Shown here: in pieces, positions 5,001-53,900 of the stretch
Position numbering within the stretch: position 1 is the first letter of the stretch
Layout of the letters: the number at the start of each line of letters is the position of its first letter
Origin: Amoebophrya sp. A120
Lineage: Eukaryota > Protista > Dinoflagellata
DNA length: 64,000 nt
Assembly: GCA_905178155.1 (NCBI GenBank)
Contig: CAJINV010000002.1
Location: 8,699,224 to 8,763,223, forward strand
Direction: 5' to 3'
Notes under the pieces: generated by a model
The model's database searches: none
The model's input: only the letters and a program-made list of their open reading frames with translations
What the model was told of the DNA's origin: nothing
Made by a program: the position numbers and the translations under genes

Positions 5001-8000
5001 CCGTTTTGCTGTTCGACTGGGGGCTGCTGATTTTTGCGAGATCGTCGTCGTCCACGAGTAGTTCTTCTCGTTGCAACACTCCATTAGCTGTAATGGCCGC
5101 TAAATGACGGTTAGAAGTACCAGGGCCCCTCCTGTCCGGAGGGGCGAGCCCTTGTAGTTCCTGTTCGTCTTCGCTGTTGGGTGGCATGATCCTATTGCTT
5201 TTGCTTCCCGGTCGGAGGTCAGTGGTGTTTTCTTGTCGGTGAAAGAACTGCTCTAGGTACAGCATGGTGTCCGCCACCGAGACTGACTTCATGTCCTCAT
5301 CTGTAGCACTGCCCGTCATCTGTTTACTGATATCGTCCTCTTCCTCAACAGGGGAATTGAACAACATACCATCAGTGTTGTACTTCTCCAGCTGTCCCGC
5401 AACCTCGTTCAGAAACGAGTTTTCCGCTCGTGTTTGATGCGACAGCGGATTCATTGCTTGCGCGCCAACATCCGACACTGTCAATATTGGAGCAGCTCCT
5501 TCGTGACCACGGTGAAGAGAATCTTCCGGCCGAGACAGTGCCAAACTAGCAGCGCCGTCATCTTCTACTTCCCTCAAGGCCTCCGCCCCAACTTGCTGCT
5601 GTGCTGCGAAGAATCTACTGCGAAGAAGCCCTCCTCCGCCGACCTTGCCTGTCCTCCCATCGTTCATGTTGCTTGATGCGTCGCCGACTGGACTCCATTC
5701 GGGCGTCCTGGGTGGCACGAGGGGTTCGTTTCCGCGGCTCGTAACCTCTGCTGCTGCCGATGACGAGGTCCTAATATCGGCACCGCTGTCCTTGGACGAC
5801 GAGAGTTGTAGAGTCTTGGGAATGTTGATGCTCAAAGAAGTGGAGGAAGAGTTCATGATTTCTGCCACGAGCTGCTCCGTTGTCTTCGATTTTCGCTTTT
5901 CAAATTCCCGGTCGTAAACGGTGCCTAACGCCAACTCGTTGTTGCTGTTGAAGAGATCGTAACTATCTCCTACACAATCACCAAACTGTTTCTGCGCAGG
6001 ATTTGGAGGCTGCAGGCGGTTTTCCGCACTGTTTCTTTGGAGGAAAAGCGCGCTCGCCACAGGGTTCGGATTGGTGGTCGGGGAAGCACCAAAAGGAATC
6101 AGCTCTTGCGGATCATCATCATCTTCTTGCTGCGAAAACGACTCGGCCTGCTGCTGCTCGTCGCCAAGGACTTTAGATTGTAGTTCTTCTTCCAAATTAA
6201 CTGGTGCAATCTCCAGACCAGCTCCCCTGCGACGATGCCCTCCAGGTCGTGCAGCAGTAATTTTCTCAAGCTTTCCCTTCGTTGCATCGTCGCGCTTTCG
6301 CTTTCCTCGCGTACGATGTTTCTTCGCCGCGAAGTCGGCGAGTTCCAGGTCCTTCAAGTTTTTCGTCTGACTTAGCAGTCGTAGTGGCTGAGACGAGACC
6401 TGATGAGAAGATATTCTTCTACTACCCCCCTGCGCCGGCGGGGACGGTTTGTAAATGAACTGCTCGTCGTCTGGTTCGTCTGTGTGCACAAATTCATCCT
6501 CGTTGTCAGCATGGTCGCGAAGCTGCGCAGCACGAGAACTACTCGCCTCCTCGCTGGTTGACGAAGCGATCTTATTCAGTGGAGCTGCGCTTCGTGTTCT
6601 CTGGTTCGTGTGGGATTCGTCCGGAAGTACTTCTTGCGGCTCTAGCGCGTCAACATTCTGTGTTTGACTGTCATACACCGCCAGCAAATCGTGCGACATG
6701 GTTCCTACAGCAGGAGGAACACGGTCCTCGTCCTGGTCTTCGGCCCCGGCGGGAATAGCTCTACTTGGTTGGTAGAAGTTTCTTTCATCAACATTCTCTG
6801 CCTCGCCGTCGGAGGCCGAAAAAACGTTCATTTCCGCCAAAACAGACGCGATGTTCTGAGACGCCTCGAAAATACGCTCGGGACTCTGTTCAATGTTCAT
6901 TTCTAGTTCAACAGCAGATGAACGAGTGACATCATTCGGTCGATCATCCCCATTGTGATTACCATCAGGTCCCGGGCACGGCAGCTGAATGACGCCAGCG
7001 GGAGAGCAGGACCCGCCGAGCGGCGACCAGATCGGCGTAGAAATAAAGATGTTGTCGTTGTAGCTCGTGGCGTACAGGGGTACGGGTGAGTTTGCTGCAG
7101 ATGATGTTGGACGTTGTTGACCCTGTAGTTGCTGCGCTGATCCGGCGTGCTGGTGCGGAGAAGTAGTGTCATATTGCTTCATATGCGCCGCGCTATCCCC
7201 TTCTGTTCCGGATTGGTACGTTGAAGTGATCAGGCTTACTATCGGAGGTTCTTCTTGCACCATCGTCGTCCCGGCCACGGCAGTGCCAGCAGGTTCCACG
7301 TGGGGCGAGTTCATGCGCGATTCGCTGGATTTGGTCTCGCTGAAGAACGACTTCACGATGTTTTTCGCTTCTTCGAGAATCTCAATCATGTCGTTTATGA
7401 CGTTCTCAAATGCTACACTCTCAAGTGTTCTTGCATGAGCAAAATTCCAACCAAAATCGTAATCGACACGATCAAGCTACTCCGCATGACAAATCCTCGC
7501 AAGGCCAAACAGGCTGAGAATCCGTGCCAAGTCTGTCATGCAAGACGCGCAAAGTGAGCCCTTCACTTTTGCCATTCGTGCGCCACAGATTCATGCAACA
7601 GCTGAGAATGTAACAGTTGAGAGCGCCATATCGTTGTCGTTGAATTTCTGCGACGACGAAATCTCGTCGCGCAGAAAGTCAACGGAAAAAGAATCCAGAT
7701 TTTCCATCACCCGAGAAAAGAAGCAGTCCCCTTCGGTCTCATACGCACTGGAGAGCATCCTCTTCACGGTGGACGAGACGTTGGAGGTCGGCGAAGTCGC
7801 GTCGATGTTGTGCAGACCGGCCCCGGCGAAGTGTTCTTGCAGCCAGGAGTCTGCGTCATAATTTTTGTTGAGCTGGTAGTATTGCAGATTCATTCTTTCG
7901 TCCGTGTGCTGCATATCGTTTTCGACGTAGAAATCATGACGAAAGTCATTCACCTGCAGATCGACCAACTGTTCCGCTGCGGTGGGCGATCTTATCGTGT

Positions 8001-13707: not shown

Positions 13708-13945
13708 CTTGGATGTTTGCGACAAACGCGCTTTTACCTATTTGTTCGCGTGGCCTGTCAGACGAGCACCAGATTTCGGTCCCCTAGTCAAATTCAACAA
13801 TCGTGTGAAGAAAACTGAAAACCGCAAAGTCGAACAGTAATTGCGAATCTGTCGTAAATTTGAACCGCCTTTCGGTCGTAAGAGAAGCTCGAAAGTCTAG
13901 ATATTCATAGCATAAGGCTTCAGCGGTAACTAATTAGCGTGTGGT

Positions 13946-13970
13946 GGAAGAAGAAGAAGAAGAGGAAGAA
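13946..13970 (+). repeat. (GAA)n microsatellite
   Basis: ggaagaagaagaagaagaggaagaa, intergenic. Confidence 0.7.
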
Positions 13971-14618
13971 GTACGTGTAGTGTAGATGTAGAATACATTT
14001 GGGCTACTGAGGTATCACGATACGGACGGCTGTACGACAGGAGGACAGGCTTCTACAGTTTCTTGCAGGCAGGTGCAACAACGATTTTACTTTCAGAAAG
14101 TTTCTTCAGAAATGAAAACGGATGTTTATGACCGACCCACACTCACAGAGGTACGTGGAAAACGCCGAGGAAGAGAAAAGGTGAACAAAGCTTTTCGCTG
14201 TGTTGACCAAGAAGTAGCTAGATCAGCATCCGTCACCGTCTCTGTGTCCGCTACAACGGCTGTGCTGATTCAAACCAATCAAGGAGTCGGCTTGCTACAG
14301 CTAGAGCTACCCAGTGTAGGCACAAAAAATTATTTCGATGTAAAACATACGTCATGCGAAGACGAAGCAAAGCAGATTTGTACAGTCAAGAATTCCATCT
14401 TTCAAAGGAAAGGTCGCAGTCAACCACAACAGGAGGACGGGAGTTCAAGACACGCAAAAGGAAATACAGGCAAAAAAGTATATACTGAATTTCTAGTACC
14501 ATATATGTAACGTCGAGCAAAGTAGTTGTAGAAAGAGAAACGGAAAGGAGCCCCGTTTTATTCATATGATGATGGGGTCGAGCTGGGCTCGGCACTATTC
14601 ATATGTGAGTGACCAAAA

Positions 14619-17102: not shown

Positions 17103-18131
17103 TTTTGTTAATATAGTACGCTCGTTTTGAAAGCGAAATTTTTGAGGATAATCCTCGCGTTAATTACACAGTACACGACTTATCAAATCCCAACATCCTT
17201 TCTTCGGGCACAGAAGTCAAGATAGGGAAAATAGGTATAGATTGGAAAAAACTAGAGTCGGACAAATTCAACGATTGCTGTTTGTGTTTTCTGCAAAAGC
17301 TGGAAACACCAGTACTATCAAATGAAATGGAATTAGAAGAAGCACGATATTCGTACGAAGATTGACCGGCCGCACAAGAGGAAGATAGCCTTCTGATGGT
17401 GTTTTTTGAGCGAAATACGTGCGACACGAGACAACTCTACGTTTTGTAGGATCCAGGTTGACCGAGCAGCAGGAAAATTAAAACTGAGGGATCGCACATA
17501 CAAAGACCACCTTCGCCTGCTCATCATTCTTCGCTATAGGCTACGGACTCACTGGGTGCTCACGTTTGGCTAACTTTCCCAAGCGCGTCTTGCTCCTGTA
17601 CTTTTTATTTTTCCGCATCATAATCATGTACATGTACATGAATTTATTTCGTTTTTTGCAATAGCCAAGGGTAAGGGCAGCGCAAGATGATCAAGTTTCG
17701 GGAGTGCTCCCGTACTTCGCGTTAGTACTAGTTCGTTTTTGAATTTCAAATTTATTGCAGGTATGTAAAGGTGGGAAGAGAACGAAAGCGACAGAAATAT
17801 CATACCGAGGTGGGTCCGAAAGTATTCAAATAGTAACCGCAGACGAGACATCAAAGTAGGATTGACGTAGGAAAGCTTTGTTTCTCTTTCAGCAGGAATG
17901 TAATTGTCTAGATAATCCGAAAGAAAATGGTAGGAGCGGCAAAGTATTTCATTAGGAATTCGTTGCTTCACTAAAAAGAACTGATTCAAGGACATAGCTT
18001 GTTGTACGAAGTCCAAGTTAGTATGCTTAGATACTCCGATGCATTTTTCATTCACCAAATCCGAGGAGGCATGATTAGCATACAACTACGTTCTTTGCTT
18101 GCGTGTTTGCGCAGCTTCCTTCCAGCTCTCT

Positions 18132-25500: not shown

Positions 25501-28500
25501 TCGACGTGCACGACCGTCATGCGCTCCCTGCCGCGGAGGAGGTTGTTCTGGATCTATTTGATGAGACAAAAGATTGTACGGTCCCTGTTCATAGGGATAG
25601 GCATAGTCGTCCTCCAGCGTCAAGTCGTCGTGTGCAGTGCCGGCTGCTGGTGGTACCATGCCTGGAACCTGGTTGTGGGGGGGCATCGTGTTGTGAAGAT
25701 CATTGTCCCACGCGTTTATGTCCCGAAACGCCAGGTCTATTGCTTCATTCCGGTCGTCCAAAGTCGCCCGATCGTGTTCTTGTCGTGAATGGTTGTAGTT
25801 CCTTGTGGCCCATGAGGATTCATTTCCGTTGTACAACGTGGCTGCAAGTTGCTGGAACTGGCTGGAAGTTACTGCACCCGACGTCCAAGCCGGAGGAGCA
25901 ACGCCCGGACGGTTATCGGGCGCTGCGTGCGAATAAGCTGGGACGCGGTGATCCCGCATGGACGATTTCAGGAACTGCTTCTGTGCGGTATGATCCTTGG
26001 CAAGCTGCACTAACAGTTCGTAGTCCAGGCCCTTGAAGCACAGCACCGCGGTGTGCAACTTCAGAACGTGATTAAATGTGCGGGGCACACCGCTGTTCTG
26101 CTTGTCGGTGTAGGTGATGGTCACAGTCGTGATCAACTTGTCCGGAGAACAGTATGGGATATTAGTGCTCGTGTCTGCCACTGCCTCGTCTGAAACATGG
26201 TTTTCCTCATCCGGGGGCTTCTTCATTGCGGTGGTGGCCGTTGTGTCGCCAGCAGCTTTGGCTGCCACGACATGGGTCAAGGAAGAAGATGACGAGGCTC
26301 CTGCCCCGGTAGCTTTAGCTGCGCGATTCTTTACTGATTGGTATCCGGGTACACCAGGTAGTACAAACCTGCTGGCTGAACCGGGAAGATTGTTTCCGCT
26401 AGTAGAAGCAGAAAAGCCAGTGGAGGTTTTGTCCGAAAAAAAGGAATCGTCTAGCGGCTTCTACCAAACGCAAAAATGTCTGGGTCTGGAAGATTGCGAG
26501 ATTTGTCATGCTTATCTGGCATGACAAAAAAGTTTGTGATGCGTGTCCAAGAAGATACCCTTTTGCCTGTCATGCAAAAACGCAGTTTCTCATGCGGAAA
26601 ACGCAACACAAAGAAGCGCAGATATTTCTCATGCTTGGCTGTGCATTACAGTGCATTCACTATTCCCAACACAGCATTACAAGTTTCCAGACCCAGACGT
26701 TTTTGCATCTGATAGCTTCGCGGATAGGACGATGTCTTTGATCTCGAAGCAGTCCTCCTTCCCGGGCCAAAATTTCATCCAGGGGCGCACTTCGCAGAAC
26801 TCGTGCTTCGTGGGATCCAGACAGTAGGACTGAAACTTGTTGAGCACCGCGGGCTTCGGCGCGTTTTCGTTGAACCGGATGTCGTTTTTATTCAGTTTCA
26901 GATCTTGCGGGATGTCGAACGTGGTCACTTCGCACACCAGTTTCTGCAAACAGCTTCCCGGAAACGCGTCGACCTCTTGGATCGCCTCGCAGAGGTCGAG
27001 GGTGAGCAAAAACGTTCCGTGGCCGCGATCCGCCGCCACTCGGCGCGGGCCCGCGCCGCCGAACCGCTGCTCTGACTTCGTGAAGTCCGCGAGCCGCTGG
27101 CTTAGAAACTCGTTTGGCGGCGGTTGATGGAATTCCGCGAGTCTTTTATTATCGTCTTCTTCACCCAAGTCGGCTTGCTTGGCGTTCTTCTTACTGAAGT
27201 CGCTTGTTCTTTGCACTTTCGGTTTTTCAGTTTCAATTTCGAGTTCGACTTGGTCTTGGTGACTGCAGGGCGGTATAGATTTGATAGCTGTACAAACATC
27301 ATCTACACCGGCCTGCTGCGAAAGATCAGTCCCTTTTACCTCTTTCACTTCTGCAGAAGACGTTCTTCCAGTACTTTCCTCCACGACCGTTCGCTTCGTT
27401 CTCTGCGAGTCGCTCTTTTGTTGCTCGTTTTCCTTCGCCCGCGCCAGTTCTTTCATCTCTTCGTCGTGGATAAACGGTGCCTTTTGCCCCGCGACCCGTT
27501 CTGCCTCCGCCAGCATTTCCTGTTTCTTTTTCTTGTTTTTCTCCATCTCGACCAGAAGTTTCTTGTTCTGGTAGAAATACTGATTCGCGCAGTCCAACTC
27601 CGTGTTCCTGGATGAAATCACCCGGAACGCGTATGCATTGCAAAAGTAATTGCAGTCATGCAGTACAAAGCTTTTATCTACTTTTTCTTAAGATGTAAAT
27701 CCGAATTATGACGAATTCCATTTCTCATGGTGGTAAAGAAATTGAAATCTGCATATATGCAGTTACGACTAGTACTAGGACGATACTTTTGCAAAGGATA
27801 ACGCGTGCCAAATGTTGATGCGCCCGTCCAGACCCCGATTCATACTGGCGGTGTCTCGCCGTTGGAAAAGCGACAAAGCATTATTTCTACTTGATGTTGC
27901 AAGCGGCGCGGAGGTGGTCAGGTTTTGGTTTATTTTTCCACTGTCATTGATACTGTTTGACGTTGCGCTTGCGGCATAATTAGTGTTCACAATATGATCA
28001 GGCTGGTCGTCCACACGAATATTGAAGCCAAACCTGGTCTTTGTTCCGTATGACAGTGCACAACTCCCACTCCCCCTCATTTGTCATGCTTAACAGACTG
28101 CGCAGCTAAAGCCCGGGGGGGTGCGGGGTCCGAGGGGTGCACTTCTAAGCACTGCCCGGAACACCCGAACATGCCCCGCGACCGGCACAGGACCAGCAAC
28201 ACAACTAGTAATCGTCGATCACAGTTTGTCGATCACGACGTAGCTGCGAAGCCGTCCATACGCCTGGCGCCCCAAGCCCAAACCCCCGAGGAAAGGCCTC
28301 GACCACAGAAGGACCAAATATGAGCTTACGGCACGATGAAGTGGGAGCGCCTGTCTATGGACCGGATGAGGGAGCCCCCGGCTGCGAAACTGCTGGCTGG
28401 TGGACGCTAACCTGCCGTAGGTGATAGACTCACTCCAAGAACGGTTTCCGTTTCAGCGGTCGCGAAGCCGAAGGGAACAGGATGCATGTAGAAGAGCACT

Positions 28501-30076
28501 GGGGACAGGAAAGGACGAAGCACGAGTGTGATGGGCATTGCTGGAGAAAAACACCCGGATGAGATCCCGACTGCGGGAAGTCGGAGCATGAGGAGCAGCA
28601 GCGGGAGATTATCGAAACCGGACAAGACAGCTGGGCAGGACTGCTTCTCGCAGGACGACAGAGACGGCGATCGGGAATCCGGATTAACGGAAAAGCTGAT
28701 GGCTATACAGAGAAGTACCGCCGCCAGAGGAGAAGTCTTCGAGACTATCGCAGCACTGGCACTCGCACCGAAAACCGAACGCGCTACAGGCGCGCCGCGC
28801 TCGTGCGTGATCACAACAGGGATCACTTGGCGGACAGACTCTACAGGAGTCTGCCTTGGTTTCCGGGAGTGACGCCGATATCGGGACGCCGGTGGGAGAG
28901 GTGGGGCCCACTGGTTGTCGCTAGCCGCTGCCGTCCCGGAAACCAGACACAACTGCAGGTGTGCCGCACTCGTGAGTGATCTCTACAGGGATCACTTGGC
29001 GCGTAGGCTCTACAGGAGCCTACCCTGGTTTCCGGGGGTGCTGGTTTTCTGGTTGGGAAGACCGTCCGTGCCTGGTCCCTGGATGCGTCGGCTCGACGGG
29101 CTCGTTTGCTGGCTGCCAGGAGGAGATCCAACGCTTCTACCTGAAAGGGTTATTTTTCGGGAAAGGCGGGCGGGGACGGAGTTATCCGCCCCCTAAGAAC
29201 AACAGCGAGACCCTCATTTGTCATGCAAAATACCCAATCCCCTGTTTTGCTTTTGCCTCTTGGCACTGATTGCATGACAAGTTCTGGCAGCCCAAATAGC
29301 ACTACACTCCAGCGCAAATTTCTCATGCAAAACCGGCATTCTTGCTGATGCTTGTATTGCCGTTCATGCTATTGCCGTGGATGAGGGGGAGGGGGAGTTG
29401 TGCACTGTCATATTCCGTACTCACCCGCGAGAAACTGGTATATGACCCGCAGCAAATCCTCGGGAAAGTGCATGGTAATGTACACGGACTTCGCGCTTGT
29501 GCCGGATTTGTTTGCCAAAAACTCGTCTTGGGCTTTCGTCGACAGCTTTTGAAATTCTCCCAACTCAAATTGCTTCCTCTTCTCAAAACACACACCCAGT
29601 GCGTTCACCGCCATGATATTCACCATCGCCGTGGCCTTCCACTGCATTTGGTTCAGCTTTTCTTCCTTAATCTTCGTCCTTTTCTTCTCGTAATCCAGCT
29701 CATTTTCCTTCATGGCCGCCTGGACTTGCGTTTGGTCCTCCTTGTTTGCTGGAGTAGAGGACGAAAGTAGCGCCCTTTGAAACTCGAGCAGTCCCTGCTT
29801 CTTCGTTTCAAAATCATTCTTCGCCTGGAAGTAGGCATTGGAGCAGCGGCGGCTGGCTTTCTTTTGCAGCAGGAGAACGGTCTTGCTGTAGGTTTGCGGG
29901 AAATTGTTGCGACGTTCTTGGTGTGGAATACCACTGTCGCTGTCATCAGAGGTGTCCTCCTCGGGCAAAAGAGGTATTATGGGAGCCACGACGTCTTGGG
30001 AAGGTTTCGTCTGAGAGGCTGCAGTGCTGGCGGCGGCTGCAGAAATGACTGGTGGGGTTCCCTGATCGTGTTGCAT
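22589..30076 (-). CDS. Hypothetical protein (~1800 aa) with F-box-like motif; 5 exons (3 introners + 1 GT-AG intron)
   Basis: In-frame junctions after excision: LAGEYG-TKTRFG (28049-29412), NIWHA-FRVISS (27632-27800), LSAK-PLDDSF (26462-26714); canonical intron 24277-24551 (GGAG|GTAAAA...ACACAG|AT). MHFPEDLLRVIYQFL resembles an F-box. Confidence 0.75.
26462..26714. mobile_element. TIR introner, family A (253 bp, TSD GCTTC)
   Basis: Left TACCAAACGCAAAAATGTCTGGGTCTGGAA vs right rc TATCAGATGCAAAAACGTCTGGGTCTGGAA; GCTTC at 26457-26461 and 26715-26719. Confidence 0.93.
27632..27800. mobile_element. TIR introner, family B (169 bp, TSD ACGCG)
   Basis: Left TATGCATTGCAAAAGTA vs right rc TATCCTTTGCAAAAGTA; ACGCG at 27627-27631 and 27801-27805; frame restored. 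Confidence 0.9.
28090..29210. mobile_element. Nested 1121-bp GC-rich non-coding insert with 16-bp flanking direct repeat (non-autonomous retroelement-like)
   Basis: CCCTCATTTGTCATGC at 28074-28089 and 29211-29226; removal leaves a typical-size 227-bp introner; no recognisable RT/transposase ORF, no TIR or poly(A) seen. Confidence 0.8.
28760..29040. repeat. Duplicated ~105-nt multi-hairpin module with C-TACAG-G loops
   Basis: Copies ~28760-28871 and ~28930-29040; hairpins at 28780-28794, 28807-28826, 28835-28853, 28975-28996, 29003-29023; closing stem 28935-28946/29025-29036. Confidence 0.8.
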
Positions 30077-36883: not shown

Positions 36884-38111
36884 GAAACAATCTCAAACTA
36901 TTCATCGGCTGTGCACAATCTGCGAAAAAAAAATAATTAGTAAACAATGCCTAAAGTGCGGCTCAGTATCAGTAGTTGTAGTTCTAGTTCTTCTTCCCAT
37001 AAAACAAATACAACGTCGTAAACAAGTCATAGTTTTTTGTTTATTCAAATTCAATCTGTGTCCTTGGAAACGAAGATACAGTGGCGGCAAGTCTTCAAAG
37101 GGTCAATCATTGCGCGTTGCAATAAACAAAACTTTTTTAGAAGCTATCCATCTCTAGAAATACTTTTTCCCGTAAAATACAAACAAGAGCTCGAAACAAG
37201 GATGACAAAAGATCAAATTTGAATTTATTCACAAGATGGCCGGGTAACAGAGTTACAGGGTGAAGTAGGTTGGGCGGTGGTGGAAAGGCGACAAAATTAC
37301 AAATACATGAAGTGATTTTTTCCCATAATCATCGAAACACACTGACGGTGCAAAGCAAACTTCCTTGTCGGGACAATCAGCACCAGCAGGAGCAAATACG
37401 ATTCGCATAAGCAACGATAGTTGTCACGAACCACATCGAACTTTGCTATCGCAATTTTGACATACGAGCTACATCTTTAGATTTGTATAGCAGTCCAAGT
37501 GTAAAATCGTTTCATAATCGTAAACTTCTTCGACTCATGGCTTTGGGACTACGCCATCGATGCTCTTGCTTTGTTGAGTCCGATGCATGTTCCCACAACC
37601 ACCTACGCCTTGCATGGGAAAACGGGTACGAGTAGTCGTCTAGCAATTCTTTCACGAGAAATCGCTTCTTTGAAGTTCTTTAGAATTTGCTGGGTGGAAA
37701 CAAGCGCACTCCTCTCTTTGTGTGCAAAGTAAAGCTTGTGGCTCCTTCTTCCCTGCAGCAAGCGGCTGCTCAGGGCCGGGGCCGCATTCATCTTTTACTA
37801 TTTCACTATTACTATATTCCTAGCATTACAACAGCTGGTAGCATTCCTATCGTCTGCCTAATGCGCATTCGGTCCTGAGCTTCTACAAAACAACATACCT
37901 GCAGCTACTTTTACATAAGTTGCAAATAGGGAACTTTGTCGTTAAATTTGTTTTTCTTGTCACCAACAGCGAGCACCATGGGAGTAACTACACCGTTACA
38001 GTCACAGACTTCAATATCATGCCAGTACAACTGACCAAGATCAAAAGTACTATCTTGTAAAGTTCTAGCTCTGCACGTCCTCGACAAGAACGTGCTTTGT
38101 TCCCTTCTGTT

Positions 38112-41100
38112 TCAGTTGTACTGCTGATACGGGTTGTAGACCCCGCCGACACCGCCGCCCGCAGCAGCAGTCGACGGAGTGTTCCCGTTGCCCCACGCGT
38201 TGGCATTTCCCTGTTGGTGTTGCCCGCGCCAGTTGTTGCCCCCACCCACATATCAACTGTAAAAATGTCTGGGTCGGGAAGAATCCAACTTGTGTGTCAT
38301 GCTGATTTTGGATTCTAAAAAAATCTGTATTGCATGAGCAGCAAAGAGAGTCCAAAATTTGCTACACGGAAAGAGCATTTGTCATGCGGTATAGGCATCA
38401 GGAAGCCCTCACAAAATCTGTGATGCTAGGGCATGCATCACAGACATCAGGAGTCATGCAAAATGTGCATTACAAATCTCGCAATCTCCCAGACCCAGAC
38501 ATTTTTACATTTGATACCACATGCATGGGCTTCGTGCCGTACTTGGCCGCATAGACGGAAGAGTCGTAATCACTGAAGCCCGGCGCCGCGCCCGGAGCAC
38601 GGGAGAAATTGTTATTGGAGGAAGTAGTGTTCGGCGCTCCTGCAGACGGGTTGATATTATCCCCACCGTGGTTGTACAAAGAAGTCGTAATGTTCATGTT
38701 GCTCACCTGCTGCAGATTGTTTCCAGGAGTCGTGCCTGTGGAAGTACCGCGCCAGTTAGAGCCACTGTTGTTCTGCTGCTGACTCGTCAGAGCGGCCGAG
38801 TTCGCGGCGGCCCCGGCCGCGTTCAGTGCTGCAGCAGTAGTACCGGTTTGATTGCTCATGGTACTCGTGTTGTTGTTCATCGTCCCATCATTCTTGTTCA
38901 TCATCCCGCCCGAATTATTGTTTTTGTAGTGGTTGTGGTTTTTCATGTTCATCATCGACGAGGTATTGTAATAATTGTAGTTGGACTGAGAACTACCGTG
39001 CTTGTTGTTCCCATAGTTGAAGTTGTTGTAGGTGTTGTTCATTCCACCCTGATTCGCTCCCATCGTGGTCGTTCCGTATGCGCCGTATTGATGTTGGCCC
39101 ATCTTATTCATCCCGTACGAGGACCCGTGATGACCCCCGGCGGCACCGTACGCGGCCCCATGGTGACCACCACCAAGGCCCGCGGCCAAACCGCCCATTC
39201 CGTAGCCGCTCGCGTTCGACATGCCGTGGGTGTAAGCGCCGTGCCCGCCGTACCCAGCGTTAGCCCCGTTGTAGTCCTGGTTGCGCCGCTCGCACTTCCA
39301 GCACGGATCCTTATCGTAGCCCGTGGCGTGCAAATCCAGCTTCACCTGCTTGTCCTCCTGAACGAGAGACAAATTCTTCTCGGTCTTAAGTATGAAAGGA
39401 GAGAAGTGGAAGTACTTAATGTGTCTAGTCACTTTTATGTCTGCTTCAAAATGTTGCTGCTCTTCTTGCTGCATCTACTTCTACCGTGCTAAAAACCGCG
39501 ATCCTGCATCATGCTTGCTACATGTGAAGCATCAACATCAGCACACTGTAATAAGTAGATCAAATTCAAAAAAAAACGACTTTGTCTCATTGCTGCACAC
39601 GACCAGCAAGACAGACAGCACGAGGACAAACTCTCGATATTCTATTCTCCCTTCCTTTTCATACTCAATCCGCTCGTCGGGTGCAGGCCATTGGGCGACA
39701 ACTGCCAGCAATCCTGGACTACTTTGCCTGATAAAGTATTTGAGAGTTTCACACCTTTTTTCAAAGTGAGTGTATCCGTATGATCATACATGTAATGCGA
39801 AATAAACAGGAGAACATACTCACGCGGCTCTGTGATCATGCTGTTGCTGTAGCTGTAGTAACACTAACAGTATGGTCCACCCTGATAATAAAAAATCAAC
39901 TATGGTCATCTTTCTCAGTACTGAAGTTTTCCACGTCGTGCATGCCGAAGTACTGCGGGAACCCGTGCTTGGCGTGCAGCCCGTTCAATTCCAACAGCTT
40001 CAAGTGCCCCAGGCACCCGCGCAGGCCCTCGCACTCCAGGTTGTGCAGCTCGTTGAAGATCCTGGTCACGTTGCACCACTGGTGGAAAAGCTCCGGGATG
40101 GTTTTCTCGATGTCGGTGACGGGGCCGAAAGCGGATCCGGTGGCTATGGCATTCTCAAACGTTACATTCTCAACTGTTACCTGATTTGTGATGCAAAGTT
40201 ACCGTAAGCCACCACAGGATCAAGCTGCTTCGCATGACAAATTCCCGAAGCAGGGCTATACAGCATCTAAATCTGTGCGGAATTCGTAATGCTATAGGTG
40301 CAACCCTCTCCCTTTGGCTTTTGCTATTTTTGCATCGCAAATTCATGGAACAGTTGAGAGTGTAACAATTGAGAACGACATAGTGGTCGTTCCGATGTTC
40401 GAGTTAACGGACGACGCTTGGTCCCCGTTATTGGACCCCTCGTCCGACCCAGCGCTGCTGTTGGACCCCTGGTCCGACGTGGCGATCGCGCGGTTGATCA
40501 GGTTGGGCAGCAGGGTGCGCAGGTCGTAGTTGCCGGACGTGCACACCAGCAGCGGGTGCTCCACCTCGTCGCCGGCCTCTTCTTCCACCATCGCGGCGGT
40601 CTCCGATTTCAGCAAAAGCTCCTTATCGTCATCCTGACCCTTGTCCGAGCGCGGCGGGGTGGAACCAGTATCGAGGAGGACCTCAAGTTTGATGATGTTG
40701 GTTTATTGTTCCAGGCGAAATAAATCCAATTCACCTTTCATCCTGATGTTCATGTTGCACTACAGATTACATTTCTGCTCTCTCTGCAGTAAATCTTCCA
40801 TCACAAAGCCACATCCAGATGTGATGACATGATTGTTTTTCTCGTTCCAATCTGAATTAATACCTTGTCCTCGCCGGTGACCACGGGAATCTTCTGGGCC
40901 TTGCCATACAGACGAAAGCCAAAGCCTTTCAACCACGCGTCAAGCTCCACCAACATCTTCATCAGGGGAACCGTATGCATTTTTGCAAAACCCGTATCGC
41001 ACTAGTGTGAAGTGCATGCCAAATCTTTCCACAAGCAAAAATGGTTCAGCTCATCATGATGGAGATTCAGGCACTATCTAAGTAAGCGCATCTGTCATGC

Positions 41101-44100
41101 TGCAAGACAAGTACAACTGCACAAAACTGTAAGTACTCAGAGTCATGCTATGATGATGTTTTTGCACAGGATAAACCGCCTGCGGCACCGAAGCGCGATT
41201 TTTGGAACGGGGATTCAAGATCCAACGGTGGAAACGACCCAGTTCCTTGCCGCATCGATTAATCAGGATACCTTTAATGATAATTCGGTATGGTGGAAAC
41301 AAATGAATGCGAAGGTGGTACTAGCTTCCAGGTATTTTTCTTCTCGTGCTTTTTCCAGTGAAGCGGAACTTACAACAAGCAGAGAAAAAAGACTATACAG
41401 GGAAATTCCGTAATTCCATGCTTCGGAGAACCGTGCAAATCCAGAATCATCAACGCGTACTTGGAAGGCTTCCCGACCCGAGACATGAACTGCGTCTTCT
41501 GGCTCGCGAACCTGATTTCCATTTATCGAGTATCAAAATCAATGCAGCAATACAGGCTAATCCTAACCAATAAAGAATAAACAAGTTGTAAGTAAGCTAC
41601 GTATAAAGTGACGGAAGGCACAACATATCATGCCAGTCCTCCTCGAGAGCATGCAATCTTGCAAACTCCTAAAGCCCCCTAAGCAACATGGCAACATCCA
41701 ATAAATCATCTTCTTGCAACAGAAGATTATCATACCGCACGCCCAACTGGTCTTGCACCTGGCGTTTCAAATTCATGTCGTCCGGTTTCAGCCACTGGGC
41801 CCGCACCCACTCCGCGTGCTCCACGTCGTGACTCAGAGTGCACCACCGGTACGCACAGCAGCCGGAGTTAAAGTAGGGACAGGGGGTCATCTTCGCGGGC
41901 CCGTTCGATTCCTTGAACTCCTTGTCCTTGGAAATCATATGGATTGTAAAAATGTCTGGGTCTGGAAACTTGTGATGCTGGGTGGCGTATCACGAGGAGG
42001 CCACAAGTGCTGGCTCAGCATGACAAGCTTCTGAGCTTCTAGGTGTTGCCTACTCTGCATGACAAACAGCGTTTCTGCATGACAGAAAATTGGGGCTCTT
42101 GGGTAATGTGCATGACAAATTTACGAGTCATGTGAGACAAGCATGACAAACTTGCATTCTTCCAGACCCAGACATTTTTACAGTTGATAAATCAGGACCT
42201 TGTACGAGGTGTGAAACGGGTGTTGCTGGTGGTGGTTGCCGTGGTGCATGCCACCCGCGGCGCCACCCCTATCCTGTGCAAAAGTATCGTAGTCGTACTA
42301 ATTGCAAACATGCATGACAAATCTCCTTCCTAAAGTAAAACAGCATTACAAATTCCACTTTTCTTCTTGCCAAAATTTGTGATGCAATTTATACTAGTCC
42401 GATATTTTTGCAATGCATAACCCCCAGCGGAAAACAACGAGTATTTCGACGCCACGTCTCCCGCCCCGGCAGCCCCCGCGAGCGCGTGGTGCAGCAACTG
42501 CTGCTGCGCCGCGTGCAGCTGCAGGTGCTTCAGCTGCGCGGCGGCCAGGTGCTGCTGGTTCAGCTGCTGCGCAAAGTTGTTCATGGTAGTTTGGTGGTGC
42601 GCCGCCTGCTGTAATTGTTGTCCCCCGGTGGCCGTACCCGTGAGGTTACTGGCCGGACCACCTCCGGTCGTGGTCGTAGCAGCCGGACCATTTGTCGCAC
42701 CACGGGCGTGATTTCCACCGGAATTCGCGACGGCAGACGCGGGGCACCGCTTCATCTTCAGCGGGGAGATCGTCAGATACTCGTCGTCATCTTCAGGCTT
42801 GATGGTGCTTCCAGTGGAAGTCACGTTGTTCAACAGCTCATCGTTGGAAGAGATTTTGTCGAAGATGCTCTGCGCGGAAGTCTTGTCTTCCACCAGCACG
42901 CCGCAATCCACCACGACATTCGGCGCACCGCTTTGCGGCTATGCGTTGCAAAATAATCGAGTTCTAGAATACTTTGAAACTACTGCAAGCCTAGAATACA
43001 AATGTTTTCTGCTCATATCAAAAAGTGCAATGTGACATGCTAGATCAGCTAGAGCATTTAGATTCGTAAACATGCACGATGATAATTGCAAGAAGACTCA
43101 GTACAATTACGTCGATACTTTTGCGCATGATAGCATCTGCGAGGAGGAAATTTCCGGCGAGTAGCTGACCGTCGGCGAGTCCGCAGTATCAAATGCAAAT
43201 ATGTCTTAGTCTGGAATAAAGCTCTAATGGTAGCCTGCGACTGATGCGCGCACTGCAGTACGCAGCCAAGCATGCCAAGTTTTCTTTGCGCTGGTATGCG
43301 TTGCGTATTTTGCATGGCAGACTTCATGTTTGATCCATGACAGTTATTGATCCAAGTAGATCATGACCAGCATGACAGATCTTGCGATCTTCCCGACTTG
43401 GACCTATTTGCACCGGTGGATACGCACCCTCGATCTGCAACTGGTCTTCCTGGTAGGAGCTAGTGGTCACGGAATTCGAAGCATTGGTTTTCGCGGAGGT
43501 CGACGCCTTGGAGTAGTTTTTGGTCGGAACTGTAGCACCTCCCGCGGTACCAGCATTGCCAGTGGCCGCGCCGTGTTGGGGCAACAGTGGCACCGGCGGC
43601 TCGTATCCGCTGCTGATCAGGGGGTTCGCCGGCGTCGCCGGCGGGTACACGGTGGAATCGTAGCCCGTCACGGAGTGTTGGTCGTAGGGAGAACCACTCG
43701 CACAACTGCCCGGGTAGGCTTGCTGCAAAAATTGCTGCAGTTGCTGGGGGTCCTGCTGCAGTAAGTGCTCCATGCCGCCGGTGGACGCCGTACGGGTCGG
43801 GTCCGAGGGGTCCACAACTCCCTGCATCATGTTCGCCAGAAAATTGTCCTGAGCAAGGTTGCCTTGTGGTCCACCCGACAAACCCGCCGCGTTCGGAAAT
43901 CCAGCGGCCATCATGCTGCTCTGCGCGGCCGCGGCGGCAGCCGCAGCGTCCAGCGAAGCGTTGCCCGTCGACGCACCAAAACCGGTTGCAGCCGCCGCGG
44001 CCCCGGCTCCCGCCGCCGCACCGCCGGCCAGCAGGGCCGGGTTCATCATCCGCAACTGGTTCAACCGCATCAACTGCAGCTGCAAATACGGCGGTAACTG

Positions 44101-44556
44101 CTGCTGCGCGCCGTCGGCAGCCGAAGAACGGGCCTGCAACAATTGCATCATGGTCAGGTACTGCTGTTGTGCCTGCAGGTTCATCAAATACGCGTGCTGC
44201 TGCAGCTGCACCGCGGACAGCTGCTGCTGCGAGGTCGGGTCCTGAAACTGCTGCAGCTGCTGCAATAACTGGGCCGGATCGGCCTGCCCAGGGTTCGACA
44301 CACCGGTAGAAGCCGGAAGGACACCCGCTCCGCCAGCTTGCAAGGTGTACAGCGCGGACGGGTCAGTTGTTCCGGCCGTCGCCGCGGCCATCAATTCGTC
44401 CAGCTGCGTCGCGGTCATTGCGCCCGCGGCCGCAAGGTGCTGCTGAGCACCCGCGGCGGTCGTGGTCTCCTGCTGCACGGCGGTCGCGCACTGCGAGTTG
44501 GTAATGTCCAAGCCTGGAGGGGCTGAGATTTTCTTGCTCATCCTCGTTGCAGTCAT
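38112..44556 (-). CDS. CCCH zinc finger + ERI1/ERI3-like DEDDh exonuclease-fold protein with Q/A-rich N-terminus and N/G/Y/Q-rich C-terminus
   Basis: Reconstructed across 7 introners and GT-AG introns (41512-41735, 41272-41398, 40682-40863, further ones at ~39360-39920). Reads CPYFNSGCCAYRWCTLSH; YALMILDLHG..GITEFPCILINRCGKELGRFHRWI; LVCTSGNYDLRTLLP; LFHQWCNV; QYFGMHDVENF. Junctions at 39360-39665 uncertain. Confidence 0.8.
38251..38516. mobile_element. TIR introner, family A (266 bp, TSD CCACA)
   Basis: TATCAACTGTAAAAATGTCTGGGTCGGGA / rc TATCAAATGTAAAAATGTCTGGGTCTGGGA; CCACA at 38246-38250 and 38517-38521; join PMHV-GGGNNW. Confidence 0.93.
40145..40382. mobile_element. TIR introner, family C (238 bp, TSD GTGGC/GTGGT)
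   Basis: TATGGCATTCTCAAACGTTACATTCTCAACTGTT / rc TATGTCGTTCTCAATTGTTACACTCTCAACTGTT; join IGTT-TGSAFGP. Confidence 0.9.
40974..41173. mobile_element. TIR introner, family B (200 bp, TSD AACCG)
   Basis: TATGCATTTTTGCAAAA / rc TATCCTGTGCAAAAA; AACCG at 40969-40973 and 41174-41178; join PQAV-PLMKML. Confidence 0.85.
41938..42189. mobile_element. TIR introner, family A (252 bp, TSD AATCA)
   Basis: TATGGATTGTAAAAATGTCTGGGTCTGGAA / rc TATCAACTGTAAAAATGTCTGGGTCTGGAA; AATCA at 41933-41937 and 42190-42194; join KVLI-SKDKE. Confidence 0.93.
42270..42419. mobile_element. TIR introner, family B (150 bp, TSD ACCCC)
   Basis: TATCCTGTGCAAAAGTATCG / rc TATGCATTGCAAAAATATCG; ACCCC at 42265-42269 and 42420-42424; join FSAGG-GAAGGM. 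Confidence 0.9.
42940..43132. mobile_element. TIR introner, family B (193 bp, degenerate TSD GCGGC/GCATC)
   Basis: TATGCGTTGCAAAATAATCG / rc TATCATGCGCAAAAGTATCG; removing 198 nt restores frame. Confidence 0.8.
43187..43422. mobile_element. TIR introner, family A, diverged (236 bp, TSD CGCAG/CGCAC)
   Basis: TATCAAATGCAAATATGTCTTAGTCTGGAA / rc TATCCACCGGTGCAAATAGGTCCAAGTCGGGAA; join IEGA-DSPTVS. Confidence 0.82.
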
Positions 44557-45344
44557 CCTACTTCTAGGTTTCCATCAAAGAGACTGCTCCACTTGCAAAA
44601 CACAAACAAGTTTTACTTGCGTTGGAATTTAGAAGTGCTCGTCGTGTTTCATCAACGAAAATCTACCGAATTTCGCCACTAATTGTCAATCAGATTTGCA
44701 ATTGATGGCTTTCATCAAATTGCAGAGGAGTATCACGTGTCTACTTACCATGTCGGGAGCATCATTGCAGCTTATTTTGGCGCAAAACTATTTTTCAAAA
44801 AGTGCACTCCTTTGGCCGTTTGCGTTTGAATCACTCTCATCAAAAGAATTGTCGCGACTTTAAAACCTTGCCCTTTTAGGCGTTGAGATGCCTCAACTTC
44901 TCTCGATCTCGAAAAAGCTCAATTACAACGGATGTCCACAAGAATGAACCCTCTGCAGAGGCGCTCACGCTTTGGCAGAAGTGTCGTCTCTCGTATCAAT
45001 AAACTCAACGAAACTAGAAGACAATCTCAACAAACGAGCCCGCATCAACCAGAGCATTCCACTGGCAGCACGGGAACTGCAAGACTTCCTCGCTGTCTTA
45101 ACTGCAAAACTTTTGGCTCTTTTCTTGATCGTCGATGCTCGACCTTTACAGTCAGAAGGAGCTTCGACGCGCCGGTGTGTGGTTCTTTAGTCGCCGCGCT
45201 CTGCAGCTGTTCTTCGACATCGAGTCACAGTCTGTCAGCACGTACTGATTCTGGTATTCTCAGAAAAAAAAAAACTCTAGTGGCGGACAGTTCAGTTTTC
45301 ACTTTCAGTTCGTACACATCAAGCACTTTTTCAATCGAACCTGG

Positions 45345-48073
45345 TCAAAACAGTCGCCACACCGAGTCTCTCGACTGTCGTCGCTTGAATTTGTAGTAGA
45401 GCTCGCAGGGGCGACGTAGAACTAAGACCACTGCAAGCCAAATCAACACCAAAACCCACCGGGGCCAATGGAGCTCGACATCCGGTTGTGGCTTGGGATT
45501 CGCGTAGAAAGCTAGGCTGTCGGATATTGTCTCTTGCTGAAGGAGGGCCTGCTCATTGGTGGAAACGCTTTCGTCGTGTCCGATTAGCATGCTAGAACTT
45601 CTGCTTGCGTTGATGTTGATATTTCCTGCTAATACTTCCAGTAAGTACTTCTGATGCCGCTTTTTGTAGACGTACACCTTCGCACCCGTCGCTAAAACTC
45701 CGAGTAACATGTAGTGGAACACGTAGAAGAACAGGGGCACGGACCCGAAACAGAAGAGAAAGGTGGTCAACTCCGCCTTGCACTGCTTGAAGATTTGCCT
45801 CTCCTCGAGGCAAAACCGCCCAAAATTTCCCAGGATGTGAGTGATGAGGTGCAGCACGTTCGTGAAGGACTTCAGCAAGCATTTGGGGAAAAAGCACCAG
45901 CGGCTGCCGATGGACACGTGATCGAGTTCTTCTTGCCCTGTTGACGTGGCTCCTCCTGCCGTGTAGAAATTATCGTTGTATATCTCGTCGTTCTGGTAGT
46001 AGTTGTTCGCATCCAGATGGTCCCCCGTCCTGACATGCAAGTCGTCCGTCACCGCGACAACTTCAACACTTTGCAGATTGGTATTGTTTCTTTGTGCGTC
46101 CACCACACCAGAAGGCTGCCGAGCTTCCGCCTGTCCGGTCATGACGAGGTGCTCCCTGGCGTCGAGAAACGGCATTCGATTGGCTGATGACGCGGTTGAG
46201 GAGACGACCGAGTCCAGTGTCAGTTGCTGCGATTCGTTCCCGGAAGATGTTGAACTGGAAGAGTTGCTAGAAGAGGTCGTTGTATCGAGCACATTCTGTG
46301 GCTGTTTTCTCCTCTTTTCCACTTGGTGCTTCCCGCTGTCGTAGCAAAACAGCCACCACAAAACGAAATTCACCCCTGCAGTGAACAACAAATACGCCAG
46401 ATCCGGCGGGTATTTGCAGAACGTGAACATGCCGCGGAAGGGACTGTCGTACTCCCCGCGCGGGTAGCCGCGAAAGTTGAAGTACTTCTCCAAATCCCAC
46501 AACTCCGCTTTCTCACTCCCGAAAATTTGTTTCACAATCGCGTTGATCCGGAATCTGACGAAGAAAAAAACGGTCAGCAGCTGTAGTCCGATGATCGCGA
46601 GCAGGGATTCCAGGTAGAAAAACCGCCCGCTGCCGCTCGCGTTCGTATTTCGGCTGCTCCGCCCGTTCCGGAGGATGCGCAGCGAGGTTTGGCTGGAGCT
46701 GCTGGTGCCGACGTAGGTGTCGTTGCTGGCCGTGTCAAAGTAGATGCCCAGGAACTTCTTCTGTTGAAAAAGCACGCCGATACACATCCCGAGAAACACC
46801 AACGAAACCCAGGGGAACAGCGGGTACGCGACGACGCCGAAGCTCGTGCGCCCGGGGAGTACCAGAAACCGCAACAAAATCTCCTGAAACGTCTCCGCCG
46901 GGTAGAACGCCTTGGGCCACGCCGAGTCTCCGTCGCTCGGGTTGCCGTTTTGCGCCTCCACGATGAGGTAAGAGGAGGTGGCGAGCACGGAGACCGCGAG
47001 GAGAACCATCAGCAAAACGCCCGCTTTTGTCCCGTTCTTGTTCGTCCCCGTCGCGACCAGGGGCGCGAACAAGCCGGCGAGCATCATGGACAAGCCCAGG
47101 CCGACCAGCACCTGCCAAATGCCGATGAGCGGGAACCACTTCAGCTATCAAATGTAAAAGTGTCTGGGTCTGGAAGAGTCATGCTGTTTTTGCATGACAA
47201 AGAAGGTCTGGCATGGAAGCTCTAGCATAACAGGTTTCGAGAGGCTTCCGCAATGCCGAACCCGCATGCCAAATCCCCCATTTTGGTGACACAAAGTGGG
47301 CAGCTTTTGCTACCTTTGCATGAGAGATTTTTCTGTGTTCTAAAATGCGCATCACAAGTTGTTCGGATCCTTCGCGACCCAGACATTTTTGCAGTCCATA
47401 TCAGCAGGACCGGGTCAATGTTCGGGCCGAAAGGCGAGGGGATGTCGCGCACACCGAGTACGTAGTAGAAAACCCACATGTATCCCGCCTCGCAGATGTT
47501 GATCAACCGGCCGCACAGGATGAGAATCAGGCCGCGAATCAAAAAGTATTTCCGCACATACCCCTCCATGGTATTCACGGCAAAGTCCGGCATCGTGCCC
47601 CGCTCCAGCGTGCTCTTCGTCCACAGAAACATGCCGATGCCCATGGTCAAGAAAAACCCCGGGGCGCAGACGTGAGAGACAAACCGGCAGAAAAACTCGA
47701 CGCGGCTGTGGTCGTAGGTTTTGAACTTCCCGCTCCACATCTCGCCACCGGCGTCCTCCGTGTGCTTCGTGAGCAAAAATTCCTGCGTGTGGTCCCAGGC
47801 CATCAATAACATGATCAAGCCGCGAAACACGTCCATGGACCAAATGCGAGCCGTTGAGGAACGCTCGGCGGTGGTGGAGGTGCGGGTGAGAAAAAATGGA
47901 GGCGCTTGTGGCTGTTGCGTCGGTGCACCAGGCAGCAGGGACGAGGGTGCTGGTGGGGTAGCTTGTTCCGTATCGGTCGGAAGAGCTTGTTGTGTAGGAG
48001 TGATGCGCGTGCTTCCGGCATCGATAGGGGTACTAGCGGCCCTACCATCTCCACTGCGGTTCTGCGAGTTCAT
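45345..48073 (-). CDS. DUF1624/HGSNAT-catalytic-like multi-pass membrane acyltransferase (~822 aa), 2 exons
   Basis: RIWSMDVFRGLIMLLMAWDH, RFVSHVCAPGFFLTMGIG, YPLFPW, KYPPDLAY, FGSVPLFFYVFH; exons joined by excising 47146-47400 (DPVLL-KWFPLIGIWQVL). Confidence 0.85.
47146..47400. mobile_element. TIR introner, family A (255 bp, TSD TCAGC)
   Basis: TATCAAATGTAAAAGTGTCTGGGTCTGGAAG / rc TATGGACTGCAAAAATGTCTGGGTCGCGAAG; TCAGC at 47141-47145 and 47401-47405. Confidence 0.93.
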
Positions 48074-50904: not shown

Positions 50905-53900
50905 CTATCCACCCACGGCACCCTCGTCCACCCATTGCTTCAAGTTCATGGCGAGTGACATCACTTCCATTGCCGGTAGCAACTCCAAATACCCCGCATA
51001 CATCAAAATGAAGCTTCGTTCTTCCTCCGTCTCACCGAACTTATTGACAGTAGTACCAATTTCCGGTTCATCATCATGACCAGCATGATTCTCTGCTTGT
51101 TGCATTGGCGTCCGTGGATTTGTAGTGGGCAGCACGACTGGGTCTTGTTCGTCAGTGGGACGTTCGTCAGTGGGACGACCACCCGTAAAATCTGCCACTA
51201 AGCCTTCTTGACTCTGCTCGTGAAGCCGCTTCTGATGTTGAAATGCGTGAGACGAGTAGTGGTCGTCTGTCGGAAACATCAGGTTCGTTCCGGTTAGATT
51301 GTTGAAAATAAACGGCGTGTCCTCGCAAATATCCTCGAGGTACCGAGCCCGCGGACGTGGTACAGTTGTGGTTAACAGTGCCCCAGAGGAGTTCTTTGCT
51401 GCAGAAGTACTAGCCAGTGGAGTCGAAGAGATCGCATGTAAGGGTGCTTGCCGCCTGCTCAAAAAGCCTACTTTCTTCGCGGATGCACCTGGCTGCAGAC
51501 TGTCGCCGCTGGGTAGTTCGGCGCCATCGCTCATGTGTTGCATTTCGGGAAGGTTTCCTACCGTCCTGCTTTTGCCAGAACTTGTTATCGTGAGCAAAAA
51601 TCCCTCCTCCCCATATCGAAAAGGCACGTCTAAGAAAATTTGTTATGCTCATTTGTGACCTCAAATCATCTCTGTCTTGCAGGACCGAAACTACACAGGC
51701 TCCGCCGCATTCTGCAGGCGGTTTGTGATGCTGTTGGCCCTACAGACTAGGCGTCTGCCATGCTTACCGCCTAGCAGAAAACCTCTCTACTCAGGCTTAG
51801 TATAGGCCTGCAGTCCTCTCCAGCAAGACAAATCTGATTTGTGTACGCAAATCCAGCATCAGAAACTTCGTTTTGATATGGGGAGGGGGAATTTTTCCTT
51901 TTGATACTTGTTCCCTTGACTTCTGGTGAAAGACCGCTGTTGTAAATTCTTTCATCCACCTCCCGCTCCCTCGAAAAAGAAGAGAGAAAGTCGCGTTTCG
52001 GCAGCTTCTCCTGCAGATCATACTAGCATCCAGAGAAAAAACCTAGCACGCCGCATTCTTTTTTTGTATAATGATGATGTACCCAACTGTGGGGTCTATA
52101 CATGAAATTTAGAGTTCTGTCTCGTATGGCCGATGAAAAACCCTGCCATGGCCTCCCAATGACAGATTTTCTGCCTCTTATAGTTTTGCGTTTTTGCGTT
52201 GCTCAGCTAGCTTTTTTCTGTGCGATAAGTAGACTTCGTTCATGATTGTACGTGCCAACGACAGCTCCTTCGCAACTTCCGACTGTGTCAGCCCCACCCC
52301 CGGTGGCTGCACTGGTGCTTGTGCTGCTTCAGCTTCGACGCCGAGCGATGTTTCATTTGCACTACCACTTCCTGGTTGTATTTGCGTTTGGTCTACCGAT
52401 CCCGCGGCCTCGGAGCCTGCGTTCGCGCGGGGCGTAATTCTTGCGTTCCCAAAGGACGAAACGGCCATTTGTGCTTCTGTTCGATGATCGGAAGAACCAG
52501 AGATCACCGGCGCGTGCGGCGGGGCTACTTCTCCGTTTTGTGCATGTGCACGACCCTCCGCTTCTGTCCGACCGAGAGAACTCGAGGGCTGCACCTGTTC
52601 CGCGCTCGCGGCGGAGGAATATACTCGGGGAGAACTACCTGCGACAGGCGAGGTCGTATTCCGCCAGCCCAATGCCGCCTGTTCCCACGCAGGGAGCAGA
52701 GGGTGTTGCTGCTCACGCTCATACCGTGCCGGAGGCGGCAGTCCGCTTTCGTCGCCGAGGTCAAACCGCATCAGGAAGAGATCGCATGCGTCTCTCCAGG
52801 CGTGATCCTCGTGCGGAGCACGGGTTCCCGGCTGGCTCATGTCCAGTGGCCGGACGAAAATCGGGCCGTCATCATAAAAATCTTCGTCGTCCGTTTCGTC
52901 ATTTTCCTCGCTTGTCTCCACCTCTGCGATCGGCGAGTGTGTCCTGGTGAAGTAATGCCCTAATGGCGTCATTCTCATTGTCTCGACGTCATCCAGATGA
53001 GGACTTGCAACGGTTCCATTATGCTCTTCAGCATCAACATCGTCGTGCTTCTTCAGCCGTACACACTTGGCGTGCATCATCGCATTCATCGTAGACATTA
53101 CCCCAGAAGATGCGCCTCCTGGATGTCGAGAACTTGGTGGTGCACCAGAAGTACTGCCAGAACTTGAAGTACTGCCTGCTGCGACATCATCAATGCGACC
53201 ACTGGTGCTGTTGCTGGCCGGCAGCACGCCGGGCGAGCCAAAGACAGGTCCACCGTGCTGAGCGGGATAATTTCTTGTAGTTCCGAAAGTGGTCTCTCCG
53301 TAGCACCCGTTCGAAACTATATATGTCGGACGGGTTGAGGTTGAGGTTGACACTGGCGTTGACGATGCTGGCCCCGCAGGTGACGGCGCACTGCTGGCCG
53401 TACTTGCGCCGAAAGGTGAAGAAGTAGCGTTCGCCGGGGGACAATTATACGCGTCGGCTGTAGACTTACGCGCGTAGTGTTTGGCCGCGTAGGCTTCAAA
53501 GAGGATTTTTGAAATGGGTAGCTTCTCCGCGTCGAGAAAGAGCTGCACCTGTTCGTACAACGTCGGCCCTGTCCACCCCTCCAGCGGGGGAACGAGGCCC
53601 GGGGGAAAAGCGGACTTCTTGCGCAATTCCTCGGACTTTTGCTGCATCTCCTTGGTGAGATAGAACTCCGCCGCGTTCTGCAACTTCTGCAACAGGTACT
53701 CCTGCTTTTGCAGAATTTGCTTCTCCGACTCTGCTTTCCACGGTGATGACGAAAAGGTTGTCGAACTGTTCCTGTCAGTACGACCAGCAGCAGCAGGTCC
53801 AGGTGCTCCAGGAACAAATACAGCTGCGCTATCTTCTTTACCTTTTCGCTTGTCGTAATTGTTTCGGAAAAAGTAGTCCGAGAAGAGCACCGTCTGTTTC

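Follow-up and report, generated by a model that had tools for sequence, protein, structure and literature searches.

The 64-kb window of Amoebophrya sp. A120 DNA considered here, which is the whole stretch analysed, contains 16 elements with terminal inverted repeats (TIRs), all of which sit in minus-strand genes between two copies of a 5-bp target-site duplication (TSD), exact or drifted. These elements are almost certainly removed at the RNA level. The removed piece probably obeys a single rule for all of them, in which the intron begins one base before the first repeat and ends four bases after the last. This position is referred to as register 4, the register k being the number of upstream TSD bases retained in the mRNA. 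A relaxed spliceosome that uses the TIR as its donor is, on balance, the chemistry that we infer. The elements themselves are already known as the introners of A120, in keeping with the statement of the original prediction that such elements are described in Amoebophrya, because an exon of the gene that hosts one of them (E12) is 100% identical to protein P0001 of Amoebophrya sp. A120 and because their anatomy matches the description of Farhat et al. (2021; PMC7789003). Relative to the literature found, in the accessible portions of the papers cited, only the limits placed on the cut site and its agreement with the host donor are new.

All 13 elements of the original prediction are recovered by scans and by reading, with the same sense-strand TSDs and with removed lengths of 155–1369 nucleotides (nt), which are not a multiple of 3 in eight of the 13. 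Four of them are E1 (7396..7630; TSD AACGA/AACGA), E2 of the main family (26462..26714; GAAGC), E3 (27632..27800; CGCGT) and the long element E4 (28049..29412, 1364 nt; CGGAA), while E5 to E13 are given below with their transcripts. Three elements are additional to the 13: E15 (39391-39663) and E16 (52027-52227), aged copies that were first noticed as contig joints, and E14 (63237-63387; TSD CATCG/CCCCG). The TSD is an exact 5-bp repeat in 10 of the 16 elements and has drifted in the other six. The predicted TAY...RTA ends are seen in all 13 original elements, which start with TAT and end with ATA, except for the GTA at the 3′ end of E2. The rule fails for E16, which ends with ATG, yet is skipped in a contig. 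Over 28 ends, TAT is found at the start of 27, and A occupies positions 12, 13 and 14 in 22, 24 and 27, respectively; the 5′ TAT deviates in none of the 16 elements. Strict pairs, defined by TAY..RTA ends, an exact 5-bp repeat and at least 12 of 17 identical positions between the ends, number nine in the window, as against a mean of 0.04 (maximum 1) in 100 dinucleotide shuffles.

Removal of an element together with 5 nt leaves a long open reading frame (ORF) on both sides at 15 of the 16 sites; in E1, it joins 1903 and 1775 codons. The claim that removal restores the frame thus holds for 12 of the original 13, while the site of E5 at 38251 is so close to a stop that the ORF test does not discriminate there. 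Stops are present in all three frames of each of the 14 elements checked. The lack of coding capacity, the TIRs and the constant TSD length are those of miniature inverted-repeat transposable elements (MITEs), or non-autonomous TIR DNA transposons. None of the six possible registers of the 13 elements gives the U2-type ends GT-AG or GC-AG, or the U12-type ends AT-AC (0 of 13 in each case), exactly as had been predicted. This absence does not extend to a rule, since 14 of 87 oriented relatives in another strain, described below, have a canonical-looking register, and at that frequency the chance of finding none in 13 is about 10%.

The evidence for removal comes from contigs of runs X1 to X4, which are presumably cDNA-derived and were judged to be RNA by guess, none being on record as RNA. 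The comparison covered the elements other than E1 to E4 (at 7396, 26462, 27632 and 28049). The contigs show the predicted TSD-to-TSD skip, of the element plus one TSD, at nine of the original 13 (E5 to E13). Overall, 11 of the 12 elements within the compared stretches are skipped, the other being E14, which no RNA contig crosses. One X3 contig of 5820 nt skips eight elements, each as the element plus 5 nt: E5 (38251..38516; TSD TGTGG; 271 nt), E15 (TSD TTGAG/CTTAA; 278 nt, 39386->39665, both=1), E6 (40145..40382; ACCAC/GCCAC; 243 nt, both=4), E7 (40974..41173; CGGTT; 205 nt), E8 (41938..42189; TGATT; 257 nt), E9 (42270..42419; GGGGT; 155 nt), E10 (42940..43132; GATGC/GCCGC; 198 nt, both=2) and E11 (43187..43422; GTGCG/CTGCG; 241 nt, both=4). 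The same contig also lacks four GT-AG introns, one of the form GTAC..AG (39728..39921) and three of the form GTAT..AG (40682..40863, 41272..41398 and 41512..41735), all on the minus strand. These skips are seen among 15 of its 21 joints. Its 13 pieces total 4201 nt, which equals the record coordinate, so that no letters lie between them, and they yield an ORF of 1289 codons.

E12 (47146..47400; TSD GCTGA) is skipped over 260 nt in X1, X3 and X4, which represent two samples of one study, and protein P0001 reads across it. E13 (51586..51906; TSD ACAAG; 326 nt) and E16 (TSD CTACT/CTAGT; 206 nt, 52021->52228, both=1) are skipped in X4 at a depth of 5.1. In X5, a DNA-like run with an even depth of about 25 over genes and spacers, none of the three spliced elements covered, E12 included, is skipped, and a contig of 10,739 nt passes through E16 unchanged; X5 is a single run seen over 45200-64000 in contigs only, and contigs drop rare forms. 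The raw-read RNA runs X9, X10 and X11 gave 100, 3 and 0 reads in the window, on repeat ends only or none.

The position of the cut can be bounded wherever the two TSD copies differ. The original prediction had looked to the imperfect TSDs at 40145, 42940 and 43187 (E6, E10 and E11) for this purpose. They provide a lower bound only: upstream base 1 is retained in E6 and E11, giving k of at least 1, and at least three upstream bases are retained in E10, giving k of at least 3 and ruling out its AT-AG register. The two aged elements close the interval. At E15, the mRNA reads TTGAA, which allows a k of 3 or 4, and the AG that lies 2 nt beyond the junction is not used. At E16, upstream base 4 is retained, so that k is 4 or 5, and any k from 0 to 3 would leave an in-frame TAG. 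The only value common to all these bounds is k = 4, with which all five drifted elements that have contig cover are compatible, and the intron then has the form N + TAT...ATA + NNNN. This result assumes that a single register applies to all elements.

At register 4, the TAT of the TIR occupies intron positions +2 to +4, where canonical donors of the host read TAY. All four canonical donors in the X3 contig are GTAY, against a background P(AY|GT) of 0.098 for each. The resemblance applies only if register 4 is general. The two aged copies have each acquired one canonical half-site in this register: the intron of E15 (39387-39664) has GT..TA ends and starts with GTATGA, while that of E16 (52023-52228) has TT..AG ends and finishes with CTAG, a TAG acceptor. 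In Table S4 of Farhat et al. (PMC7789003), the top non-canonical motifs start with NT in 9 of 9 cases for A120 and with TT in 9 of 9 for strain A25. The same authors did not detect snRNP27, and in a published abstract the loss of SNRNP27K goes with +4U donors.

Relatives of the elements were sought with a TIR motif scan, which returned 150 loci, all from assembly JACKZZ01 of another strain (83% exon identity to A120) and none overlapping the window. They yielded 120 element calls, or 118 after de-duplication and a 45-nt flank filter, with an exact 5-bp TSD in 102. A codon model, which replaced a noisy fourth-order frame model (61 of 118 consistent), gives the best ORF on removing the element plus 5 nt in 82 of the 118, plus 4 nt in 17 and plus 6 nt in 19. 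Orientation was assigned to 87, and 31 were dropped for a low score, a low margin or more than three TSD mismatches. In the oriented set, the TSD has no invariant base at any position, and the notion that TSD positions 4 and 5 are constrained in both copies was rejected, as mismatches occur there. The interior is found in both orientations (30:28 and 12:15), as it is in the spliced E5 and E12 of the window. The ends are nevertheless unequal, with TATC at the mRNA 5′ end in 21 cases and at the other end in 8 (p=0.024; for the 60 elements of a strict set, 15 versus 4), which means that they are read differently. At register 4, intron phases are distributed 41:23:23 (p=0.024). A is enriched at +1 (33 of 87 versus 25%, p=0.009), for which a target preference is possible; this was not used as evidence. 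Two relatives (L048 and L121) have ACA or ATG in place of ATA at their second end, which ORF scores weakly assign to the 3′ side of the mRNA, as in E2 and E16.

Taken together, the register and the donor match suggest how removal might proceed. A relaxed spliceosome would start the intron at N-TAT, one base before the first repeat, which resembles the host GTAY donor; TAT would act as donor positions +2 to +4, and the first base alone would be freed. The 3′ cut would be set by distance, four bases past the last repeat, rather than by AG, and this distance could be measured through paired ends, through a protein bound to the ends or through separate recognition of each end. Because TAT is present at both ends, an insertion in either orientation and at any target would be turned into an exact intron. 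Some signal probably does guide removal, given that the TAT lies, at the register proposed, where canonical donors have TAY. A further-reaching form is that the A120 spliceosome has dispensed with both G+1 and the 3′ AG, using an NUAY donor and an acceptor placed by a ruler, and that aged copies drift to GT or AG at that register and so become ordinary introns; this can be put forward only tentatively.

A number of observations weigh against the general register and against the spliceosomal donor. No single element fixes register 4, which results from the overlap of two elements with one contig each, and the bound from E16 comes from a contig of depth 5.1 whose third piece is absent from the listing. 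For one relative, L144, whose TSD copies differ at position 4, the residue in the A120 ortholog is K, as encoded by the downstream copy; a k of 3 or less explains this more simply, because register 4 needs a K-to-R change, although the test is weak at 83% exon identity between the strains. A parallel ortholog test at L080 yielded nothing. The phase bias is compatible with register 1 as well, and the p-values of about 0.02 are uncorrected across several tests. At the proposed ends, neither G at +1 (23 of 87 versus a background of 36%, p=0.07) nor a 3′ terminal AG (6 of 87 versus 7%) is preferred, and GT-AG occurs in 2 of 87, so the machinery must accept any ends. The preference at the 5′ end is for C at +5, which is the opposite of what an unchanged U6 ACAGA, pairing with G, would favour. 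The invariance of TAT is also expected from transposition alone. The evidence is from contigs only, in which no lariat or branch point was seen. The Table S4 pattern may come from aligner or annotation choices, Farhat et al. did not find U1 in A120 (PMC7789003), and the rows available from Gozashti et al. (2025; PMC12130899), 21 of 58, list mixed registers for A120 families.

The original prediction held that removal is guided by the TIR stem and TSD geometry rather than by splice dinucleotides. The strongest competitor of the relaxed spliceosome is a separate machine: a non-spliceosomal system, either an endonuclease with a ligase or one of the Euglena type, would recognise the paired TIR ends and make staggered cuts with 1- and 4-nt spacers. 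The offsets are indeed fixed in the register proposed and no 3′ AG is needed, U1 was not found in A120 (PMC7789003), and in Euglena non-conventional introns use rules of paired motifs and spacers, according to the accessible text (PMC12501133). Folding exceeds that of shuffles (z <= -2.3) in 13 of the 15 elements folded. The two exceptions, E7 (z 0.4) with its weak TIR pairing and E10 (z -0.3), have an end-pair probability of about 0; because they fold like shuffled sequence and are still skipped, removal does not evidently require a stable TIR stem. Identity between the two ends of the same element at positions 4-10 (5.21 of 7) is hardly above that of random pairs (5.07 of 7), and 8.7% of shuffles reach it. 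TSD identity is likewise unneeded, as E15 retains two of five identical bases and is still skipped. What stands of the prediction is the TSD-to-TSD junction and the independence from terminal dinucleotides, as seen in the unused AT-AG register of E10 and the ignored AG of E15; a need for a stable stem or for TSD identity is not supported. Since the 5′ cut also coincides with the host GTAY donor, and E15 and E16 carry GT and AG, respectively, at register 4, a non-spliceosomal machine appears unlikely.

A second competitor keeps the spliceosome and lets the register vary between 3 and 5 within the TSD from element to element, the best half-site being chosen each time. The L144 ortholog, the GC donor of E10 at register 3 and the mixed published calls are in its favour. 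Such a choice should have used the near-canonical AT-AG pair of E10 at register 1, its best, and the AG just past the E15 junction, neither of which is used, and the agreement of all five drifted, contig-covered elements with register 4 makes a variable register improbable.

The skips could also be artefacts of a reverse transcriptase that slips between direct repeats where a hairpin closes. A hairpin with a short direct repeat is a published signature of this artefact in the source available, and the RNA evidence is from one study, presumably from cDNA and in runs guessed to be RNA. Against slippage, the 14 elements checked carry stops in all frames and eight of the elements lie in a single ORF, elements with weak stems and E15 with its poorly matching TSD are skipped as well, and the ortholog in strain AT5.2 aligns across E12 ungapped. 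The junctions retain the upstream TSD copy, while slippage at the stem base should, we infer, retain the downstream one. Slippage is thus very hard to credit. Least credible of all is elimination of the elements from DNA in a life stage, as with the internal eliminated sequences of ciliates, which have TA-bounded ends comparable to the TAY...RTA ends and flanking direct repeats seen here, because the one DNA-like run, in contigs over 45200-64000, shows no element skip, its 10,739-nt contig running through E16 unchanged, and because the contig that skips the elements also lacks GT-AG introns.

The X3 contig that is without eight elements and four canonical introns belongs to a minus-strand gene at 37900..44675. 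Read by eye, the spliced 1289-residue protein carries a putative CCCH-like finger and putative motifs similar to those of a DEDDh exonuclease. The gene that contains E12 is of the HGSNAT type, and the Pfam domain HGSNAT_cat is split between the two exons that flank the element. At 2065-13341, removal of E1 fuses two ORFs into one of about 3,680 codons, to which Pfam assigns no family; 16 of the 18 ORFs searched in Pfam are without a family, and a search of Rfam gave 0 matches. Every long ORF of the window lies on the minus strand, which agrees with the clusters of unidirectional genes that a published abstract reports in Amoebophrya.

E4 combines a short family form of about 220 nt, with relatives at L114:389-607 and L018:950-1145, and a GC-rich middle of 1.14 kb. 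This middle is flanked by 16-nt direct repeats (E4 26-41 and 1163-1178) and contains an 88-nt tandem pair. A 191-residue ORF in E4 has no Pfam match and no atlas match of 0.9 or more. E4 may be a long ancestor, or a short form with an insertion, and no transposase is recognised in it. The motif GCATGACA is found 20 times within the elements, which cover 4.3 kb, and twice in the remaining 59.7 kb; in elements of the main family it lies at distances of 40-55 and about 80 nt from each end. It looks like a subterminal repeat of the kind bound by transposases. As a branch point it was rejected, because its placement is symmetric, 40-55 nt from both ends, and its pairing with U2 would be poor. Nor was the U-tract of the 3′ TIR supported as a polypyrimidine tract, the four canonical introns having none. 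X9 reads at 38483-38516 join the TIR end to foreign flanks (88 and 71 reads) and, as far as sequence can tell, would come from a member of the family left unspliced, either at a different locus or in a different strain. The summed depth of X5 reaches 95,716 at window position 47200, where unique sequence has about 25; this is not a copy number, and it suggests thousands of related copies.

Each of the systems that have been described shares features with the elements of the window. The A120 introners of Farhat et al. (2021; PMC7789003) have inverted repeats composed of TAT, 7 nt and an A run, with direct repeats of 3–5 nt (5 bp in the legend of Fig. S19), RNA support and no internal transposase; more than 60% of A120 introns are non-canonical. 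The TAT-starting inverted repeat with its A run, the direct repeats, the removal from transcripts and the repeated family are all found here. In the portions available, that work leaves open the border position and the machinery, U1 and snRNP27 being undetected and minor snRNAs reported absent, whereas the present bounds narrow the border to one register, which is matched to GTAY. The A120 families of Gozashti et al. (2025; PMC12130899) are likewise TIR DNA-transposon introners of about 150-350 nt in hundreds of copies, but in the 21 of 58 A120 rows available they are automated calls with TSDs of 2-5 nt, three modes of splice-site recruitment and no single register.

Outside Amoebophrya, class 12 of Polarella glacialis (bioRxiv 10.1101/2020.10.14.339549) is close in having a 5-nt TSD, a donor made of the last TSD base and the first element base, and a 3′ site in the second TSD. 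As far as the accessible text goes, it needs a TSD of NNAGG or NAGGH, whereas the TSD here is free, with no excess of G or AG in 87 relatives. In Fritillaria (PMC11282704, PMC13326754), MITE-derived introns with TIRs and TSDs are reported to be removed by an altered spliceosome; AG-AC and AG-AT ends dominate there, in the parts of these papers available, while the 3′ dinucleotide here is free. The non-conventional introns of Euglena (Nomura et al. 2025; PMC12501133) are also MITE-like, with inverted ends and non-canonical borders set by spacers. The available text gives their rule as N3CDG / CHG N5-6|R and treats them as thought to be non-spliceosomal. The rule here is N1-TAT / ATA-N4, its start overlaps the canonical donor, and the euglenid N3CDG signature is not found, +4 at register 4 being T in 16 of 16 elements. 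A fixed register in A120 would specify the lariat branch base, the U6 and U5 contacts that must differ, and the half of each intron that has to be re-annotated. If true, it would reveal a spliceosome that finds its 3′ site without AG, and a route by which transposons are made harmless at any site.

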